A stretch of 64,000 bases of DNA from Cyanobacteria bacterium auto_48_18 (lineage in GTDB: Bacteria; Cyanobacteriota; Vampirovibrionia; Obscuribacterales; Obscuribacteraceae): assembly GCA_036170915.1 (NCBI GenBank), contig JAVHQC010000022.1, positions 191,420 through 255,419 of the forward strand, given 5' to 3'. Each line of letters starts with the position of its first letter. The stretch's first letter is position 1. The translations under genes and the position numbers were made by a program. Shown piece after piece: positions 1-10,184 of this stretch. Under the pieces are notes generated by a model. That model had not been told where the DNA came from and made no database searches. It worked only from the letters and a program-made list of their open reading frames with translations.

Positions 1-135
1 GTTGACACAACTAAGGTTCCTGTTGACACGACTAAAGTTCCGGTTGACACCACCAAGGTTCCTGTTGACACGACTAAAGTTCCGGTTGACACCACCAAGG
101 TTCCGGTTGATACCACTAAAGCTCCGGTTGACACC
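1..135 (+). repeat. 21-bp coding tandem repeat (~6 copies)
   Basis: gttgacacNacNaaRgttccN units with synonymous third-position variation. Confidence 0.9.
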
Positions 136-366
136 AAAGCTTCTGTGGATGCCAACAAAGTTGAGACCAGCATTCTCAGCAGCAAAGACAACGTGAATCC
201 TGAAGATGACGCTTACGTTGCTTCTGTAAGTGCTACAAACCAAAGCATCGCTCGGGATAAAGCTAATCGCGACAGAATTGCCCGCGAGAAGGCCGACAGA
301 GAAAGATTGGCCAAGTCTAGCTCTCAGGCTGAAAAACCTGACTTCGAAAACTTTGTAGTCAGCTAG
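1..366 (+). CDS. 3' part of a hypothetical protein with VDTTKVP heptapeptide repeats (5'-truncated by window)
   Basis: Frame 1 is open from base 1 to TAG at 364-366 and reads VDTTKVP x5, VDTTKAP, VDTKAS..., continuing into the 145..366 ORF; followed by a terminator. Confidence 0.75.
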   Translation, partial: VDTTKVPVDTTKVPVDTTKVPVDTTKVPVDTTKVPVDTTKAPVDTKASVDANKVETSILSSKDNVNPEDDAYVASVSATNQSIARDKANRDRIAREKADRERLAKSSSQAEKPDFENFVVS

Positions 367-1564: not shown

Positions 1565-2830
1565 TTACTTAGTCGGGGCGATAGTGACTTTTATGGCTTG
1601 TGGACGATAAATATCACCATTGGTCAAACGCGAGAATTGGCTGCTGTTTGTGCAATAGGTCAGCACTATTTCCCCCTTACTCTTCGTGTATTGAGCATGG
1701 GCTTTAGCACTATAGTAAAATAGACCTGGTTGATTTTTGATCTGATAGATAGACACTCTGTCTGACCATGGCCCTTCTGGTTTAGCTGCTTGACGCATCA
1801 TAATTTCTTGTTTGTCCGGGGCAAAGTAGAATGCAAAAAAGCCTGGTAGTCCGCGAATTTTTGTCACCGACATTTCAGAAGCTCCGTCTTCAAAAAGCAT
1901 TTCAGGAAATTCCAAAGTCGGCCGCCACTGATCGCACCACCACTCAGGTTTGCTCAGTTTTTGACTCTCTGCCTTAGCTAATGAAAAGCGGGCCAGGCAA
2001 ATTGGGTGCTTGTATTTATTGAAACTGACACCACCATTGGTGCAGTAAATATAAGCGTATTTATCATCAGTGGAGCAGGCAGCTGCGTATAGTAAACGTT
2101 TGGAGCTGTTTTGAAGTATCTCTGTTTGCCAGCGCCAGCGGTCCGGCGAATCTTGTGGATTCAAGACAGTAATCAAATGATCTGTGCGTAAATCAAACTG
2201 AAATGGAGCGGCCAATTTACGGTCAGTGCGCACCACGTGCAGGTACAGGTACAACTTGCCACCAGCCATAAAGCCGTGACCCGGCCAGTAATAATCTAGA
2301 GGGTCAAGACATTGAAAAAAACCTTGTTCGTTGATCTTGCCTGATTTGCTTTTTTGCTGGCTCCAGTAATAAGTAAATTTACCGGGAGTGTCGCCGGTTC
2401 TTTCTTCGATGGCCAAAGCATTGTGCACCATGGTGGAGTCAACTCGTTTGTTGGCCTGCAACAAACCAATAAATGAGTCGCCAAAGAGCCACAGGGTGCG
2501 TTTCGGGCCCAGCTCAATGCTGTAGGCGGCATCTCCACCGGTAAAGTCTTTTTTAGCGCTTGAAGCCTTCTGCATAAACGCATTTGTCAGGGGTGCATAT
2601 GGTTTAGCGGAGGTAGCTTTAAACTGGCAGGGTGGTCGAGTTTTCTTGTTGGTAAAACCGAAATCATTGGCGCTGGCGTGCTCTGTTACTAATGCGTTGA
2701 CGAGCAGCAAAAGACAGAAAGCAAAGACAGCCTGACAGGCTGCCTTTGCTTGGTTGTGTTTGAGAATTGCAATCAACAGAGTGCGCCTAACTGGCCGGAT
2801 TGAAATTGTCTGGTGGCTCCTTTTGCTCAA
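1565..2830 (-). CDS. Exported DUF4185/DUF5005-like (beta-propeller glycosidase-like) protein
   Basis: GGDAAYS, LWLFGDSF, YYWPG, PEGPWS and YSAKAH motifs; hydrophobic N-terminal segment; start uncertain. Confidence 0.65.
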   Translation of the reverse strand: MSKRSHQTISIRPVRRTLLIAILKHNQAKAACQAVFAFCLLLLVNALVTEHASANDFGFTNKKTRPPCQFKATSAKPYAPLTNAFMQKASSAKKDFTGGDAAYSIELGPKRTLWLFGDSFIGLLQANKRVDSTMVHNALAIEERTGDTPGKFTYYWSQQKSKSGKINEQGFFQCLDPLDYYWPGHGFMAGGKLYLYLHVVRTDRKLAAPFQFDLRTDHLITVLNPQDSPDRWRWQTEILQNSSKRLLYAAACSTDDKYAYIYCTNGGVSFNKYKHPICLARFSLAKAESQKLSKPEWWCDQWRPTLEFPEMLFEDGASEMSVTKIRGLPGFFAFYFAPDKQEIMMRQAAKPEGPWSDRVSIYQIKNQPGLFYYSAKAHAQYTKSKGEIVLTYCTNSSQFSRLTNGDIYRPQAIKVTIAPTK

Positions 2831-5800
2831 GATTTAAATCAAGAGTTTTGTTATTTTGGGGGTTTCCGCCTCCAACACCTCCGCCGGCACCCTGCCCTAA
2901 TTGGGTCAATCCGGGTAAGAATTCTAGATTGACTATGGGCGCGGTACCAACTAACTTGCGTTCAGACAAGGTATCAAGCTCTTTATTGATTTGCTCGTCG
3001 GTTTTACCCGGTTCGAGAATGTGCACCAGGTCTTTATAGAACAAGGTCTCCTTTTCTACCAGTGCGTGGGCGATAAGGTCGAGTTCTTTGCGTTTTTCTT
3101 TAAGCAAGTTACGCACATTCTCCAGACAACCATCCACAACTTCTTTGATTTCCAATTCAAGTTCGCGCTCGGTTGTGCCTGAAGCAGACCGCCCCTGCAC
3201 ACCGAAGGCCGTTCCCGTATTCAACGCGAATGAGCCCATACCCCAATCTTTGATCATACGGCGAGCAATATTACCGACATTAACCAAATCTTGAGAGACA
3301 CCGCTGGTGGTGGTGTCCATATACAGACTTTCCGCCACATAACCTCCCAGTGATACTTCTATATCTACCAGGTAATCTTGCTTGTTGGCCCCTGACACGA
3401 AGCGATCTTCCTTTTCCACCGACCACATATAACCAAGTGCTTGTCCGGTTGGCACGATTGTCACAACCTGGACGCGCTCTTTGCGATTGCGGAAGTAAGA
3501 AACAATAGTGTGACCGGCTTCGTGATAAGCGGTCTCAAACAACTCTTTCACGCCGATATGCTGACTGCGGCTCATGCCGAAGCTCACTCTTTGAATAGCG
3601 CGAATCATGTCTGAATGTGTAATTTCGATTCGCCCTTCGCGAATGGCAAATAATCCTGCTTCGTTAACGATATTAGCAAGATCGGCACCAGCCTGCAGGA
3701 AAGTCATGCGGGCAATTTCCATCACTTGCACGCTTGGCGAAACTTTGAATTTCTCCAGATATTTTTTCAGAATGGCTTCGCGACCTTCAAGATTCGGCAG
3801 CGGCACATCAATGTGTCTATCGAACCTGCCTGGCCTTAGGAGGGCCGGATCAAGCATATGCATGCTGTTGGTGGCACCAATGGTGAGAATGCTGTGTTTG
3901 CCGAAACCATCCAACTCAACCAATAGTGAATTGAGCGTTTTATTGGAATCTTGCACAGCACCGCCACCACGCTCGACACCACGCGTGCTGCCAATGGCAT
4001 CAATTTCGTCAATAAAGACGATGCCTGGTTTGCCGCTCCGTCTGGCTCGTTCGTAGACAGCTTTAACGCGGTTTGACCCTACGCCTGCCCACATTGATTG
4101 GAAGTCGGCGCCGGAGAGCGAGTAGAAGGCCACTCCAGCTTCATTAGCAATGGCTTTTGCCAACATTGTCTTACCGGTTCCGGGAGGGCCAACCAACAGA
4201 ATTCCTTTGGTTGGTTTAAGGCCAAATTTTTCTACTGCTTTCATATTCTTGAGCAAAGCAACAACTTCGGCTGCTTCAGCTTTGGCTTCTTCGACTCCTT
4301 TAAGGTCGTCTAGTTTGACTTCTAAATCAGGTACACGCGACAAATTCATGCCGCCTACATTTAATTTGTGTCCGGCTGTAATCATCACTTTGTCGATAGC
4401 TTCTTCAAGTTCCTCTTCAGTAACCTGGCTCTTTCCTTTGCGCACGGCCAGGATGGCCGCTTCGTTACAAGCCGCTGAAATATCGGCACCAGAAAAATTG
4501 AATGAGAGCTTTCCTAATTTAGCTAAGTCAGGAACTGAAGCGAGGCTGATCTTTTTCAAATATTTGTCGAAGATCAATCCGCGTGAATGCGCGTCTGGAA
4601 TACCAATGAAGACTTTGCGATCGAACCTTCCTGACCGGTAGAAGGCCGGGTCAAAATCATCTTGCATATTGGTGGCGCCAATGGTGATGACGTTGCTGCG
4701 GCCCAGACCATCCAGTTCAACTAAAAGCTGATTCAGTGCTCCGCTTCTTGCTGTACCAAGTGGATCTGAACTACCGTCAATGTTTCTTGGTGAGCCAATG
4801 GCGTCAATTTCATCAATGAAAACAATGGCTGCAGGGCTTTGTCTAGCCTGAGTATAAAGAGCCCTGATGCGGGCCGCACCGGAACCAATATTATTCAATT
4901 GACTGGCTGATAGGCCGTAGAAAGGCACTCCTGCCTCATTGGCAATGGCTTTCGCCAGCATAGATTTACCTACGCCCGGTGGCCCCACCATGAGTACACC
5001 TTTGGGAATTTTTGCACCGATTTTGCGAAGTTCGTCGCCGCGTCTGAGAAAATCGACAATCTCAACTACTTCTTGCTTGATGTCATCGATACCGATGATG
5101 TCGGTGAATTTAATTGAGGGATCGTGACTGACCAGTTCCACACCAGAATTGGTCAATGATCTTTCTAGGCCCACTGAGACTCGATCTAAAGCTTGCAAGA
5201 TCATGTCAGTTGTGACTTTATTAGGGTTTCCTGGGCGTCTGGAAATCAGCGCTGCTTCATTTACCACATTGGCAATTTCAGCCGGTGAGTAATTAGCGGT
5301 GAGCATTGTAATCTGGTCATAGTCAATTTCTGAGTCGGCCGCAACTTTACCCAGATAATACCTAAACAGTTCGGTTCTTTCTTCAGGCGTCGGCATCTGG
5401 AAGTAAATGCGCCTGTCCATGCGGCCCGCACGCATAAGCGCTGGGTCTAGCATGGAATCATTATTGGTGGCACCGATAACCATGATTTTAGAACCGCTGA
5501 AGCCGTCCATTTCTGTAAGCAGACAGTTGAGCGTCATGTTCATATCTGAAACGCCACCAAACCCCTGGTCTTGTGAGCGTTTTGATCCCATTGACTCAAT
5601 TTCGTCAATAAATAAGATGGCACGGTCGTGTTGCTTTAACTTGCGGAAAAGGGTCTTCAGTTTAAGCACACCAAGGCCCATGAAAATTCCGGCCACGCCG
5701 CCGCCATCAATGACGTAGAATGGCACACCAGCTTCGTTTGCAATGGCTCTGGCGAAGAGCGTTTTACCAACGCCGGGTGGTCCAATGAAAATCATTCCTT

Positions 5801-6203
5801 TCGGAACCTGCGCACCAGAATCCTGATAATGTTGAGACTTTTGAATGATGTCGATAACTTCGCGAATTTCTTGCTTCGCCTTGTCGTTGCCGGTCATTTC
5901 TTCAAGAGTTTTAGGAGCATTAGGGCTTATTGGCGAATCTTTGAAGAGCCACTTAAACCAGCGCTTCCAAATACTTTTCGGTGCCTTGCTGTCTGCTCGC
6001 GGAGGTAGAGGAAAAATTACAGAAAGCATCAAGTAGAACTGAATGATGATGAAGAAGGCACCGTAAAGAACGGCCACCACCAACGTTATCACCGAGTATT
6101 TGAGAAATGCCGGAAGAGATGCAAACGGATTCCAGTATTGGGCCGTGAGAATTAAGCCAACAGTCCAGAGTATAAATAGGGTCCAACGAGCCCAATTTTT
6201 CAT
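2787..6203 (-). CDS. FtsH-like membrane zinc metalloprotease with three tandem AAA+ domains
   Basis: 2 N-terminal TM segments; Walker A GPPGVGKT/GPPGVGKS/GPPGTGKT; three FIDEI Walker B motifs; three SRH RxGRxDR; HEAGH and SGVSQDL in a C-terminal M41 domain. Confidence 0.92.
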   Translation of the reverse strand: MKNWARWTLFILWTVGLILTAQYWNPFASLPAFLKYSVITLVVAVLYGAFFIIIQFYLMLSVIFPLPPRADSKAPKSIWKRWFKWLFKDSPISPNAPKTLEEMTGNDKAKQEIREVIDIIQKSQHYQDSGAQVPKGMIFIGPPGVGKTLFARAIANEAGVPFYVIDGGGVAGIFMGLGVLKLKTLFRKLKQHDRAILFIDEIESMGSKRSQDQGFGGVSDMNMTLNCLLTEMDGFSGSKIMVIGATNNDSMLDPALMRAGRMDRRIYFQMPTPEERTELFRYYLGKVAADSEIDYDQITMLTANYSPAEIANVVNEAALISRRPGNPNKVTTDMILQALDRVSVGLERSLTNSGVELVSHDPSIKFTDIIGIDDIKQEVVEIVDFLRRGDELRKIGAKIPKGVLMVGPPGVGKSMLAKAIANEAGVPFYGLSASQLNNIGSGAARIRALYTQARQSPAAIVFIDEIDAIGSPRNIDGSSDPLGTARSGALNQLLVELDGLGRSNVITIGATNMQDDFDPAFYRSGRFDRKVFIGIPDAHSRGLIFDKYLKKISLASVPDLAKLGKLSFNFSGADISAACNEAAILAVRKGKSQVTEEELEEAIDKVMITAGHKLNVGGMNLSRVPDLEVKLDDLKGVEEAKAEAAEVVALLKNMKAVEKFGLKPTKGILLVGPPGTGKTMLAKAIANEAGVAFYSLSGADFQSMWAGVGSNRVKAVYERARRSGKPGIVFIDEIDAIGSTRGVERGGGAVQDSNKTLNSLLVELDGFGKHSILTIGATNSMHMLDPALLRPGRFDRHIDVPLPNLEGREAILKKYLEKFKVSPSVQVMEIARMTFLQAGADLANIVNEAGLFAIREGRIEITHSDMIRAIQRVSFGMSRSQHIGVKELFETAYHEAGHTIVSYFRNRKERVQVVTIVPTGQALGYMWSVEKEDRFVSGANKQDYLVDIEVSLGGYVAESLYMDTTTSGVSQDLVNVGNIARRMIKDWGMGSFALNTGTAFGVQGRSASGTTERELELEIKEVVDGCLENVRNLLKEKRKELDLIAHALVEKETLFYKDLVHILEPGKTDEQINKELDTLSERKLVGTAPIVNLEFLPGLTQLGQGAGGGVGGGNPQNNKTLDLNLEQKEPPDNFNPAS

Positions 6204-6218
6204 GATTCTTCCCTACTC

Positions 6219-6470
6219 CTATTCGTTGCCGAAACCATCGGCATCTCTATTTTCATTTTTGTTGTTAACATCAACCATGTATCTATATTTGCGAAACGCT
6301 CCAGTCACCTTAACTTCTGGAATCAGGCCTTCACGCCTCTTCCAAACGCCTAATGAAGTGGCTTTGACGTCAGCAAGTCCTACAGGAATTGGGCTCGCAG
6401 GCCCCTGGTAGTTGACGAAGGTGGCCGACATAATCATGGCTACAAAGAAAGCAATGGCGTACTTAAGCAT
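6219..6470 (-). CDS. Small membrane-anchored/exported hypothetical protein
   Basis: 83 aa, hydrophobic N-terminus, 10-nt and 15-nt gaps to neighbours. Confidence 0.65.
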   Translation of the reverse strand: MLKYAIAFFVAMIMSATFVNYQGPASPIPVGLADVKATSLGVWKRREGLIPEVKVTGAFRKYRYMVDVNNKNENRDADGFGNE

Positions 6471-6480
6471 GGCTTTATCC

Positions 6481-6939
6481 TTAATCCAACGGCATGTCTA
6501 GTTCGCGTTTGATCCACTTTGTCAGGTCAGGCTGCGACATTTCACCTTTTACGCCATTAATAGCTTTGCCTTCTTTGAAGAGCACAAAACCAGGCACACC
6601 CTGTACATCGTAGCGCTCTACCAATGCCTGGTTGGTGTCGACATTCACTTTGACAACACGCACGTAACCTTGACTGTCAGTAGCCAGTTTGCTAACGATC
6701 GGTTTCATGGTTAGACAATGGGCATCGTTTTCTTTGTAAAACTCCACCATCACCGGTGTGTTGGAGTCGAGCACTTCGCCCTGAAAAGTGCCGGCATTAA
6801 CTTCCGTGACCGCGTCTGGTGCCGGTGCATTGGCAAATGTCCAACCGGTTGGTGACACCAGCGGATTGCCGCCCTCGTTGCCTGCCAGCACACAGCTAAC
6901 AAGCAGCGCGATGATAAATCCAATGACCGCTTCCTTCAT
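6481..6939 (-). CDS. Membrane-anchored/exported thioredoxin-like protein with atypical DAHC site
   Basis: PVMVEFY...DAHC, VKVNVD, cis-Pro VQGVP, FKEG; N-terminal hydrophobic helix. Confidence 0.85.
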   Translation of the reverse strand: MKEAVIGFIIALLVSCVLAGNEGGNPLVSPTGWTFANAPAPDAVTEVNAGTFQGEVLDSNTPVMVEFYKENDAHCLTMKPIVSKLATDSQGYVRVVKVNVDTNQALVERYDVQGVPGFVLFKEGKAINGVKGEMSQPDLTKWIKRELDMPLD

Positions 6940-7195
6940 TCCTAGCCTCGTTTCTTGCCTAGACTCGTTGCTTCCTCAATGAGGTTGCCCTTTAGACCGC
7001 AGTCTACATATATATTGGCATAGCCTTAGAAGTTTTACACATTCCCATTACGGAATCACAATAAGTGATTACCCTGATCTTTGCTTGAAAAGCTTGAGCG
7101 ATATCGCTCAAGCTTTTCCGCAGACTTTATCTGTAAAGCAAAACCGGATGAGCCATAGCTCACCCGGTCAAGATTTCTAGAGCTAAGCCTTGAGC

Positions 7196-7741
7196 TTATT
7201 TGCCTCTTTCTGGAATGGCCACGGCGTCGATGATGTGAATCACACCATTGTCGCAAGGCACATCGGCTGTTGTGACGATACAACCGTCTACAACAACTGT
7301 TCCTGATTTGTTGACAATCATCAAAGACTCACCTTGCAAGGTGGCCAAAGAGCTTTTGTTGGCCAGGTCAGCAGCAGTGTATTTGCCTTTGACGACGTGA
7401 TACTTGAGCACATCTTTAAGACGCTTAGGGTCATTCATCAAACCTTCACGGTTTTCTTTGTTCATTTTGGCCCAACCAGCATTGCTTGGAGCAAATACTG
7501 TGATTGGTCCGCGAATGCGCAGCATGCCTACGGCGTTGGCTTTTTTCAAAGCTTGAACGGTTGTTGAACAATCGGCATTTTTTATGGCAACGTCAGCTGC
7601 ATCATTTCTGTGGTGATAGTGATGATGACGATGCTTGGTGCGAGCTGAAGCTTCGGTAGTGGTGCCAACAAGTCCGACTCCGAGCAAGAGCGCTGCGGAA
7701 AGCGCAAGACTCGCTAGATTTCGGCCAGAGTAAAATTGCAT
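7196..7741 (-). CDS. Fasciclin (FAS1) domain protein
   Basis: TVFAPSNA, LKYHVV, NGVIHIIDAV; signal peptide followed by His-rich tract. Confidence 0.9.
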   Translation of the reverse strand: MQFYSGRNLASLALSAALLLGVGLVGTTTEASARTKHRHHHYHHRNDAADVAIKNADCSTTVQALKKANAVGMLRIRGPITVFAPSNAGWAKMNKENREGLMNDPKRLKDVLKYHVVKGKYTAADLANKSSLATLQGESLMIVNKSGTVVVDGCIVTTADVPCDNGVIHIIDAVAIPERGK

Positions 7742-7830: not shown

Positions 7831-8151
7831 CTATACGTGTTGCTCGATGGCCTTGGCAAGAGTCGATTTCGGCACTGCGCCTACAACCTCCTCGCAAACC
7901 TGTCCGGCTTTAAACAGGAAAAGGCTTGGAATGCCACGAATTTTGTATGCATGGGCGGTTTTGGGGTTTTCGTCTGTATTCAGTTTGACTACTTTGAGTC
8001 TTCCCTCGTACTCCTTTGAAAGGTCCTCAACTACAGGTGCTACGGCCTTGCATGGTCCACACCAGGGAGCCCAGAAGTCGACGAGAACTGGGATATCAGC
8101 TTTCAACACTTCCTGTTCGAAGGTGGAATCGGTAACGTTTGCAACGGACAT
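7831..8151 (-). CDS. trxA: Thioredoxin
   Basis: [18 protein letters not shown]; start moved to ATG 8151 downstream of AGGAGG. Confidence 0.95.
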
Positions 8152-8416
8152 TTCTAAACAGGACCTCCTCTGAGTCAGAGCACTAAATAGATTTTTGAAG
8201 CTTTGAAGCAATCAAAAAGATTATAGTGACTGTGAAGTAGTTTCCCACATATTGCGAGAATGCCTAGCCCACGAGGCGCTAGTCAAGTGTTCGGAAAAAC
8301 CGTTGATCAGAGCCAAGACCTTAAGCAAATTCAGATTCTCGCGCTGTTTTGGGCTCTTGTAAAAACGAGGTTAGACTTTAGACTAATGATCAGTTCAGGA
8401 AAATCCTGAGGGTTAA

Positions 8417-9901
8417 GTGAATCTTCTCGACCGCATCTTATATAAATGGCTCTTCCGCAGTTTGGCTAACCAGCTGCTTATCACTTATCTCATTGTCATT
8501 ACCTTCGCGCTGGCGGCCGTGAGCTTCTGGGCACTGGTAGCAATTCGCAAAGAGTCCTTGACCGACCTGCAGAATACTCTTGAGGTAGAAGCAGTTAACC
8601 TCGGCCTTGAGATTGACAACGACCTTGACCTCGATTCGCCCAAGTCGAGATTGCGCATTCAATCAGCAGTAGATAGACGTGCCACCAGACTTGGTGTCGC
8701 TATTGTTGTGGTTGATTCTGACGGACGTCTCCTTGCTGATTCATCTGAACCACGTCCGCAGGAGAATCTGGCTAAGGAGCAGGAAATCAATGAAGCCCTT
8801 GCCGGAGTAATTTCTAAATCAACTAGAAGTGACCCAGAAAGTTTGAAAAACTGGATGTATGTTGCTTGCCCAGTGCGCTCATCAGGTACAACCACAGGGG
8901 TTATTCGCGTGGGCGTGCCGCTGACCGACATTGAGCGCAGGCTTAAAAAAGATCTTTTTGTTTTTCTCGAAATTATTTTCGCCACAGGGGTAGTTACGGT
9001 ACTTATCAGTCTCTGGTTGGCCAAGCGTGTCAACCGACCATTGATTGAAATGAGTGCTCTCGCTAAACAAATTTCGATTTCAGGCGATTTCTCGGCCTTC
9101 CTGCCGGTCAGACGCCAAGACGAAATCGGTGAGCTCTGCCTTTCATTCAACCAAATGATTGGCCGCCTGCGAGAGCAAGAGCGAGTGCGCCAGGAGTTTA
9201 TCTCTAACGCTTCGCACGAGCTGAAAACACCAACCATGGCAATTGGCTCTGTGGTGGAAGCGCTGCAGGCCGGAGCGGCTGAAGATCCTAAACTGCGCCA
9301 TCAGTTTCTTGGATCGCTCGAGCGGCTAGTGGACAGGCAGACTAGTTTGATTCAGGACTTACTGGATATTTCCAAGCTCGACAGTGGTGGCGAAACCGGC
9401 TGGCAGGAAGATGTGAATATGGCTCAATTGGTGAGCGATTCAGTTGATCAGATCAGACCGCAAGCAGACAAAAAAGAGTTGGCGATCTCAACTCAATTTG
9501 AAGCCACCGGTGCCCAAGATTTGGTGGTCGCAGGCAACAGCAGCCAGTTACAGCGAGCTCTAATCAATATTCTTACCAATGCCGTCAAGTACACTCCAGC
9601 TGGTGGTGCCATTACCATTGCTGTGCGTGCTTTAAGTAGTGAACGTTTAGAAGTTCGTATACAAGACACCGGCAGTGGTATCGATGCATTTGACTTACCT
9701 CACATTTTTGATCGGTTTTATCGCGCTGACAAGGCACGCACAAGAGAGACTGGCGGCACCGGTTTGGGTCTGGCCATCGTGCGCGAAATTGTGGCGCGGC
9801 ATCACGGTACCGTAGAGGTTGAGTCAACAGTCAGTCGGGGTTCCACATTTATAATTTTGCTACCGCTACGTCAGCGAGGTGCAGAAAGTGGAGCCGTCTG
9901 A
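8417..9901 (+). CDS. Membrane sensor histidine kinase (PhoR/WalK-like; HAMP-HisKA-HATPase)
   Basis: 2 TM, HAMP (DEIGEL), NASHELKTP, NAVKYT, DTGSG, FDRFYR, GGTGLGL. Confidence 0.93.
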   Translation: MNLLDRILYKWLFRSLANQLLITYLIVITFALAAVSFWALVAIRKESLTDLQNTLEVEAVNLGLEIDNDLDLDSPKSRLRIQSAVDRRATRLGVAIVVVDSDGRLLADSSEPRPQENLAKEQEINEALAGVISKSTRSDPESLKNWMYVACPVRSSGTTTGVIRVGVPLTDIERRLKKDLFVFLEIIFATGVVTVLISLWLAKRVNRPLIEMSALAKQISISGDFSAFLPVRRQDEIGELCLSFNQMIGRLREQERVRQEFISNASHELKTPTMAIGSVVEALQAGAAEDPKLRHQFLGSLERLVDRQTSLIQDLLDISKLDSGGETGWQEDVNMAQLVSDSVDQIRPQADKKELAISTQFEATGAQDLVVAGNSSQLQRALINILTNAVKYTPAGGAITIAVRALSSERLEVRIQDTGSGIDAFDLPHIFDRFYRADKARTRETGGTGLGLAIVREIVARHHGTVEVESTVSRGSTFIILLPLRQRGAESGAV

Positions 9902-10184
9902 CACTGATAAGAATGCAGCAAAGAGCGAGAATGCCGGCAGCAAGAAAAAGGCGCTAAGCGATCTGGTCTCTGGAATTCGTTCGCTGGCGAAGAAGAAAAA
10001 AGCGGCTGCTGCCGAACCTGCAGAACAAATGGTTTGCTGCAAAGGCATTGTGCATATTGCTTATCGTGGGTTGACTGATGACCGTATGTATATTAGTTAT
10101 TCGCGTCGGTGGAATGAGATTCGCTATTTCAGGCCACACGGCCTGAGAGTTTTTTGTGCTGATTGTCGCCATCGGGTGTTGTAA
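9879..10184 (+). CDS. Small basic hypothetical protein with Cys motifs
   Basis: 101 aa overlapping HK stop; CC and CADC motifs; fills the gap to the next gene. Confidence 0.55.
   Translation: MQKVEPSDTDKNAAKSENAGSKKKALSDLVSGIRSLAKKKKAAAAEPAEQMVCCKGIVHIAYRGLTDDRMYISYSRRWNEIRYFRPHGLRVFCADCRHRVL

Follow-up and report, generated by a model that had tools for sequence, protein, structure and literature searches.

The closest described relatives of the protein reported here are the canonical FtsH and i-AAA/m-AAA proteases, in which each chain joins a membrane anchor to one AAA module and one M41 zinc peptidase, and the machines of the Cdc48/p97 type, in which classic-clade AAA modules stand in tandem. 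A further manner of arranging AAA modules is seen in the single-chain ring proteins dynein, midasin and RNF213, where consecutive modules lie side by side in one ring. To our knowledge the AAA+ unfoldases characterised so far stack no more than two rings per chain, and the literature searched held no exception. The subject of this report is a gene for an FtsH-like protease with three tandem AAA modules and a single M41 peptidase, found in a stretch of 64,000 nucleotides from Cyanobacteria bacterium auto_48_18, a member of the Obscuribacterales (contig JAVHQC010000022.1, positions 191,420 to 255,419 of the forward strand; the whole stretch is referred to as the window and all positions are given in its coordinates). 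This triple-AAA FtsH is a real, order-wide and well-conserved FtsH variant. With three modules per chain it is classed as FtsH-derived rather than as canonical FtsH, and it is apparently undescribed. The open-access literature searched, which did not extend to the phylogeny of Shao et al. 2018, supplements or architecture databases, gave no description of a triple- or multi-AAA FtsH, the relevant terms were not found in the available part of a review of FtsH evolution (PMC9020784), and no chain covering three modules was present among the best 60 of 76 sequence matches to solved structures. The suggestion in the original prediction, made from the sequence alone, that the architecture is an unusual one for an AAA protease is supported.

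Architecture, distribution and origin

The gene and its parts were delimited as follows.

2787..6203, minus strand: triple-AAA FtsH-like protease gene, 1138 aa (single open frame 6203 to 2787, Pfam, homologue coverage)
6135..6185, minus strand: hydrophobic helix 1, residues 7-23, a probable membrane segment (hydropathy; AlphaFold2 helix 3-24; weaker than helix 2)
6012..6098, minus strand: hydrophobic helix 2, residues 36-64 (hydropathy and AlphaFold2; 12-residue loop to helix 1)
5166..5918, minus strand: AAA module M1, residues 96-346, membrane-proximal (Pfam and motifs)
4368..5123, minus strand: AAA module M2, residues 361-612 (Pfam and motifs; ATP site intact, pore loops variable)
3570..4325, minus strand: AAA module M3, residues 627-878, adjoining the protease (Pfam and motifs; pore Trp705)
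2994..3566, minus strand: M41 zinc peptidase, residues 880-1070 (Pfam, zinc ligands, fold match)
2790..2993, minus strand: C-terminal tail, residues 1071-1138, a short conserved stretch and then a Gly-rich low-confidence end (AlphaFold2, alignment)

The open frame of 1138 residues, and the reading of three complete FtsH-type AAA modules and one M41 domain in it, had been proposed beforehand and were confirmed by Pfam and by the positions of the motifs. The Pfam set that had been expected was obtained, with three stretches of PF00004, three of PF17862 (AAA_lid_3) and one of PF01434 (M41), the last at 141 bits against a cut-off of 29.9. The TIGR01241 (FtsH) score, a sum over three stretches, was 982.7 bits against 600. 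In M1, M2 and M3 respectively the first bases of Walker A lie at 5783, 4985 and 4190, Walker B reads FIDEIE, FIDEID and FIDEID at 5612, 4820 and 4016, and the arginine-finger motifs RAGRMDR, RSGRFDR and RPGRFDR are found at 5432, 4637 and 3836; in the peptidase HEAGH lies at 3524 and SQDL at 3296. Of the two transmembrane segments with a very short loop that had been foreseen, two hydrophobic helices and a loop of 12 residues were found, but the first segment is weak in this protein (19-residue hydropathy peak of 1.17 vs 2.36 for the second; family mean for the first, 1.71 over residues 7-23). An N-terminal membrane anchor is thus present as judged by hydropathy and the modelled helices. The FtsH_ext periplasmic domain is absent from the protease, and the only PF06480 match in this genome is on another contig.

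The three modules share 38-42% protein identity with one another and the strongest internal DNA repeat in the gene is 74% over 89 nt, so that triplication during assembly can be set aside, as had been argued earlier from the divergence of the modules. Run X1 contains a contig of 5630 bases that runs across positions 2000-7000 with 0 differences and flat depth, X1 being possibly the source of the window and so not an independent witness. In run X2 a relative was found in pieces, none of them spanning the stretch, and one backward joint with a 34-letter side was not used as evidence.

The 120 homologues listed are 62-88% identical to the protein, all align over 95-100% of its length, and the databases label them 'FtsH' or 'AAA family ATPase'. 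With profiles built from the family the domain order AAA-AAA-AAA-M41 was recovered in 119 of 121 proteins, one module being split into two hits in the other two. Named relatives put the order in the Obscuribacterales/Melainabacteria, and a census of 107 of its genomes detected the gene in 100, in a single frame in 87 (86 with one near-full-length match without stops and one, G085, with one frame and two matches) and as partial or split matches of at least 57% identity in 13 more; the seven genomes without a match are 58-92% complete. With this query the family was not found in 201 sampled genomes from other orders of the class, where two candidates were scored in each, or in 250 genomes sampled across the phylum, where four were scored and some genomes are shared with the class sample. 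In 97 of the 107 genomes there was also a match to a domain that typifies canonical FtsH, which makes the triple-AAA protease an added paralogue, and this genome too has a canonical FtsH of 662 aa with FtsH_ext, on a contig other than that of the triple-AAA gene. The gene, at 86% identity, and the same small upstream gene occur also in a record under the title Flavobacterium psychrophilum, which is probably a mislabelled bin.

Motif conservation was counted on 120 proteins (360 modules), one of the 121 being dropped. Of the 360 modules, 359 keep the Lys of Walker A, the Asp-Glu of Walker B and the Asn of sensor 1, and all 360 keep both arginines. In the peptidase the zinc site (His894, Glu895, His898 and Asp972) and Gly988-Met989-Gly990 at the base of the protease ring are invariant in 121/121. 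Ratios of dN/dS were 0.005-0.072 in the 14 of 21 module comparisons with measurable dS, dS being saturated in the remaining seven; judged from these comparisons, M1-M3 are under purifying selection. The pore loops are unequal among the modules, which the original prediction overlooked. At the pore-loop-1 position (n=119) M1 has Ile in 78 proteins, Phe in 39 and another residue in 2, M2 has an aromatic in 80, a gap in 29 and another residue in 10, and M3 has Trp705 in 118, so that an invariant pore aromatic is found only in M3. The M2 of the present protein lacks the aromatic through a 2-residue deletion. M1 has a conserved pore loop 1 (G-x-x-x-G-L-G) and a conserved D-x-G-x-G in pore loop 2. 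The inter-subunit motif of M2 is mostly DGI or DGL.

The per-module phylogeny that had been called for was built with FastTree from 188 modules. M1, M2 and M3 were each monophyletic (14 members sampled, support 1.0), which places the triplication before the sampled family, although the order of duplication was not settled by the tree. Origin by fusion with Cdc48 was ruled out, the modules grouping with FtsH. A second tree (43 rows, quick method), drawn from M41 together with the last AAA module, united the triple-AAA family, short single-AAA FtsH paralogues with one helix and multi-module forms from the Omnitrophota (98 SH-aLRT), and put the genome's canonical FtsH in a different FtsH subgroup (98 SH-aLRT). 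The short paralogues (L046-L050) come from another class of the phylum, are ~493 aa long with one N-terminal helix and are without the periplasmic domain; they are 52-55% identical to M3 and are candidates for the ancestral form. The protease is best explained as an additional FtsH paralogue in which triplication of the complete AAA module preceded the radiation of the order.

The search for the architecture showed it to be order-wide in the Obscuribacterales, and also that the design recurs elsewhere with 2, 3, 4 and 6 modules, which had been overlooked. Among 149 other cluster representatives, a list ranked by score and hence enriched for multi-AAA forms, there were 36 of AAA-AAA-M41 order, seven with three modules, of which one cluster carries the name Thermoleophilaceae, and one with four. 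In many of these proteins a protein's own modules are sisters in the module tree, which points to repeated separate duplications; on the tree, multi-AAA FtsH arose repeatedly, with 2, 3, 4 and 6 modules, and the Obscuribacterales gene is one instance. The 120 relatives of the Omnitrophota-group protein P0122 among the matches listed (the group being so called from source names) divide by module number into two (73 proteins), three (37), four (six) and six (one), with three partial. The four-module relatives form six clusters, which are 60-100% identical to P0122. Individual forms include P0282 (1861 aa) with six AAA modules and one M41, P0122 and P0283-P0287 with four and one each, and nine three-module relatives with a catalytically dead middle module, all of the Omnitrophota group. 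Elsewhere the entire AAA-M41 unit is doubled (P0128, P0129), six divergent AAA modules occur without M41 in membrane-anchored proteins of ~2100 aa (P0134, P0153), and several AAA modules are combined with a long segment between two membrane helices (P0124, P0127). Three Obscuribacterales genomes also have a two-AAA FtsH paralogue (L013 2756-5869, L014 2524-5694, L015 2430-5738), which by the tree is unrelated to the three-module family.

Arrangement of the modules

Two oligomers had been envisaged, six chains stacking three rings or a dimer of chains building one pseudo-hexameric ring, and the evidence favours the first and disfavours the second. The preferred reading, to which a probability of roughly 0.6 is given, is that six chains would form a membrane anchor, rings of M1, M2 and M3 and an M41 ring with six sites. 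One line of evidence comes from the decay of modules in relatives. Walker A, Walker B and sensor 1 act in cis whereas the arginine finger acts in trans, according to the available part of PMC5039278. For 47 of 50 other multi-AAA proteins with M41 (103 modules; three were dropped for gaps at motif columns) a cis residue was lost in 13 modules, 12 of them first, one middle and none last, that is, none adjoining M41; by the module tree these represent about seven lineages. Twelve of the 13 had also lost one or both of their own arginines (both in six), compared with 2 of the 90 cis-intact modules, while both arginines were kept by the next module in 13/13 cases and by the previous one in 12/13. 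Among 113 of the 117 Omnitrophota-group proteins there were 10 dead middle modules, eight without the first arginine and all 10 with intact neighbours, but these are closely related and amount to one or two events. Since dead modules lose their own arginines and neighbours keep theirs, where a mixed ring predicts the opposite, rings of like with like are favoured. Stacking is favoured also by the four-module relatives, as four cannot tile a six-membered ring.

The region that forms the M41 ring is conserved in the triple-AAA family, and in sequence terms this favours a ring of six sites. Met989 is presumably the equivalent of Met666 in AFG3L2, in agreement with the numbering offset in the superposition; its MAFFT column is ambiguous in single-AAA proteins, so it was left out of the family comparison. 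In AFG3L2 Met666 lies in an inter-subunit pocket of the protease, and M666R abolished recovery of the hexamer, as given in the part of 10.1101/551085 that was available.

The whole chain was modelled by AlphaFold2 with a pLDDT of 81.3 and a pTM of 0.64, and M1-M2 alone with a pTM of 0.48. Modelled M2-M3 superposed on single D1-D2 chains of p97, Cdc48 and NVL at 4.2-5.3 Å (476-495 residues), except for a chain in the open state at 14.0 Å, and on VAT 5vc7_A over 493 residues at 3.4 Å. M1-M2 matched 8rhn_O over 492 residues at 6.0 Å when taken from the whole-chain model and p97 9yrc_A over 500 residues at 4.1 Å when folded alone. M3 with M41 matched FtsH 3kds_F (Z 36.5, 3.5 Å, 420 residues) and M41 the FtsH protease domain 2di4_B (Z 20.8, 1.8 Å, 160 residues), and no dynein- or midasin-like chains were present among the fold matches listed. 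Both junctions, M1/M2 and M2/M3, fit a stacked and not a side-by-side pose, which speaks for stacked rings, though in monomer models for which a training bias is possible, and their poses may resemble those of p97 D1/D2.

A number of points weigh against three stacked rings. The D1/D2-like pose may be reproduced by AlphaFold2 from its training, the pTM values are 0.64 and 0.48 and the pLDDT of the linkers is <50. The decay test rests on relatives, all three modules being intact in the triple-AAA family, and a fully decayed module could sit outside any ring. Six of the 12 decayed modules kept one arginine, and Lys is able to replace the arginine-finger Arg (PMC5039278, same part). The last module of P0249 has lost both arginines, and M2 of P0122 has lost one despite intact Walker motifs. 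The commonest module counts of 2, 3 and 6 all divide six, solved FtsH structures have a longer loop behind the Gly-Met motif than this protein, and in four of the 107 genomes (G009, G013, G041, G077) the gene is split or interrupted within a contig.

Those four genomes are also what could be said for an assembly artefact or a non-functional fusion, for which the chance is negligible; the single frame in 87 genomes, the divergence and separate monophyly of the modules and the purifying selection all oppose it, and the conservation of full-length orthologues refutes it. The strongest alternative, itself unlikely, is a hexamer whose working FtsH core consists of M3 and M41 alone, with M1 and M2 binding and hydrolysing ATP as assembly, spacer or regulatory tiers that pull little and that might, for example, stand in for the missing periplasmic domain. 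It would account for the Ile that mostly replaces the pore aromatic in M1, for the variable or deleted position in M2, for the lack of FtsH_ext and for the upstream modules being the first to decay in other lineages. It sits poorly with the retention of the Walker B Glu, sensor 1 and both arginines in M1 and M2 (359/360 modules), with the conserved pore loops of M1 and with P0124 and P0127, in which several modules coexist with a long inter-helix segment.

Two chains side by side, in a pseudo-hexameric ring M1-M2-M3-M1'-M2'-M3' with two protease sites, are an improbable arrangement, given the model geometry, the decay pattern and the four-module relatives. Nevertheless three divides six, forms with 2, 3 or 6 modules make up 111 of the 117 complete P0122 relatives, linkers of ~15-20 residues would be compatible by length, and FtsH heterohexamers exist, as stated in the available part of PMC9020784. 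The same part of that review records that cyanobacterial FtsH paralogues form heterocomplexes, and canonical FtsH with FtsH_ext is matched in 97/107 genomes, both of which speak for mainly mixed oligomers of the triple-AAA protein with the genome's single-AAA FtsH, the extra modules standing on a shared M41 ring. That is a remote prospect, however, as the invariant arginine fingers of M1 and M2 would need same-tier partners that canonical FtsH does not supply, the two proteins belong to different FtsH subgroups, and their genes are on different contigs.

With three stacked rings, chains assembling like with like in the order anchor, M1, M2, M3 and M41 would enclose one long channel with 18 ATP sites, by a stacking like that of D1 on D2 in p97/Cdc48 plus one ring and a fused protease. 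M3, with its invariant pore Trp, would do the main gripping and feed the zinc sites. It is proposed as the pulling ring because only M3 has an invariant pore aromatic, just as pore aromatics are found only in D2 of eukaryotic Cdc48 (PMC7226402, available part). M1 would probably engage the substrate at the membrane, and M2 may hydrolyse ATP, grip weakly and couple, as compared with the D1 ring of eukaryotic Cdc48. A likely role would be the degradation of stable or membrane-embedded proteins that single-ring FtsH handles poorly. By analogy with ClpA and Cdc48, the odds are about even that the extra tiers add unfolding power. With three intact modules here and relatives with 1, 2, 4 and 6, unfolding force, processivity and ATP cost per tier become testable in one scaffold, and the fact that nearly all members of the order retain the gene although they also have an ordinary FtsH suggests that it serves a task of its own in these uncultured bacteria.

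Gene neighbourhood

Gene order was compared in 12 long loci (L017-L028) from ten genera, and the neighbours of the protease gene in the window are these.

6219..6470, minus strand: small protein of 83 aa, hydrophobic helix at the N-terminus, 15 nt upstream of the protease (position conserved; no Pfam family)
6481..6939, minus strand: thioredoxin-fold protein with an N-terminal hydrophobic helix and one Cys at the CxxC site (Pfam, loci comparison)
7196..7741, minus strand: fasciclin-domain protein (Pfam; conserved gene run)
7831..8211, minus strand: thioredoxin TrxA (WCGPC), head of the conserved run (Pfam; loci comparison)
8417-10184, plus strand: sensor histidine kinase and 101-aa gene, divergent from the trxA run (loci comparison)
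1565-2830, minus strand: DUF4185 gene directly downstream of the protease (Pfam)

Upstream of the protease and on the same strand trxA was found in all 12 loci, with a second thioredoxin-fold gene between the two in 11 and a fasciclin gene in seven. A gene for a small membrane-anchored protein lies 9-66 nt upstream of the protease in 11/12 loci, and its products are divergent (16-67% identity to this copy). The divergent sensor kinase was present in 11 loci, the twelfth ending before its position, the divergent 101-aa gene in eight and the DUF4185 gene in four. The 83-aa protein is a probable operon partner and a candidate adaptor of the protease; no Pfam family was found for it and its Atlas matches were all under 0.9. 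The idea that it is a split-off FtsH_ext was rejected, since comparison with the N-terminal part of the genome's FtsH by hhalign gave a probability of 0.26% and PF06480 was absent from 14 members. Its N-terminal helix is like that of the thioredoxin-fold protein at 6481-6939, in which the first Cys of the CxxC is lost here and in L019, while the CxxC is kept in nine copies from other genera. The protease stop is followed after 36 bases by a hairpin of 15 pairs (2751-2719), which falls within the predicted 5' end of the DUF4185 gene. A promoter scan stood at chance level, with 8 found against 7.3 expected. At the window edge an open frame (1-366, plus strand) carries a tandem repeat of seven residues (VDTTKVP-like).

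A role in redox or envelope quality control is a guess from gene order, and a functional link of the protease to the thioredoxins stands at about even odds. The fullest account, which must be called tentative and falls a little short of even odds, would be that of a self-contained membrane AAA+ protease in which three rings, stacked and all hydrolysing ATP (18 sites), thread one substrate into the fused protease. It would be one step in a natural series with 1, 2, 3, 4 and 6 tiers, reached by FtsH independently on several occasions, and for it the small membrane protein encoded upstream and the thioredoxins would be adaptor and disulfide-clearing partners.

Comparison with known systems

Canonical FtsH and the i-AAA/m-AAA proteases (M41; TIGR01241; 3kds, 7tdo, 2dhr, 7zbh, 6az0, 6nyy) share with the triple-AAA protease the N-terminal anchor, an AAA module with two arginines and an M41 domain with HEXGH and an Asp ligand, but the latter has three AAA modules per chain and not one, is without FtsH_ext and coexists with a canonical copy. 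The aromatic-hydrophobic-Gly of canonical pore loop 1 is found in M3 (Trp 118/119) and partly in M1 (Phe 39/119) and M2 (80/119). Tandem classic-clade AAA modules with short linkers are shared with Cdc48/p97/VAT, NVL/Rix7, the SPATA5 complex, NSF and Pex1/Pex6, and the Cdc48/p97 type is further resembled in pore loops that are unequal between tiers and may be resembled in the modelled poses (3.4-6 Å to D1/D2, in monomer models open to training bias). The triple-AAA protease differs from that type in its proposed three tiers, its FtsH-descended modules, its fused protease and the membrane helices that replace a soluble N domain, and its TIGR01243 (CDC48) score of 543 is below the cut-off of 802.65. 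The Ycf2-FtsHi chloroplast import motor is likewise an FtsH-derived membrane motor with unequal subunits (M3 with M41 matched 8xku_E at Z 30.1). Its subunits are separate single-AAA chains mostly without protease activity ('probable inactive' in the PDB name), whereas the zinc ligands of the triple-AAA family are invariant. In ClpAP, as is proposed here, a protease is fed by more than one motor ring, with the proximal ring dominant (PMC5039278, available part), whereas here the protease is fused and zinc-dependent, all modules are of the classic clade, the protein is membrane-bound and three tiers are proposed. Closest in design are the other bacterial multi-AAA FtsH forms (2, 3, 4 or 6 modules in the Omnitrophota, three in the Thermoleophilaceae and two in many clusters), which likewise join tandem AAA modules to one M41; those of the Omnitrophota fall in the same FtsH subgroup as the triple-AAA family (98 SH-aLRT), but the modules of these proteins group together and not with M1, M2 or M3, as separate duplications.

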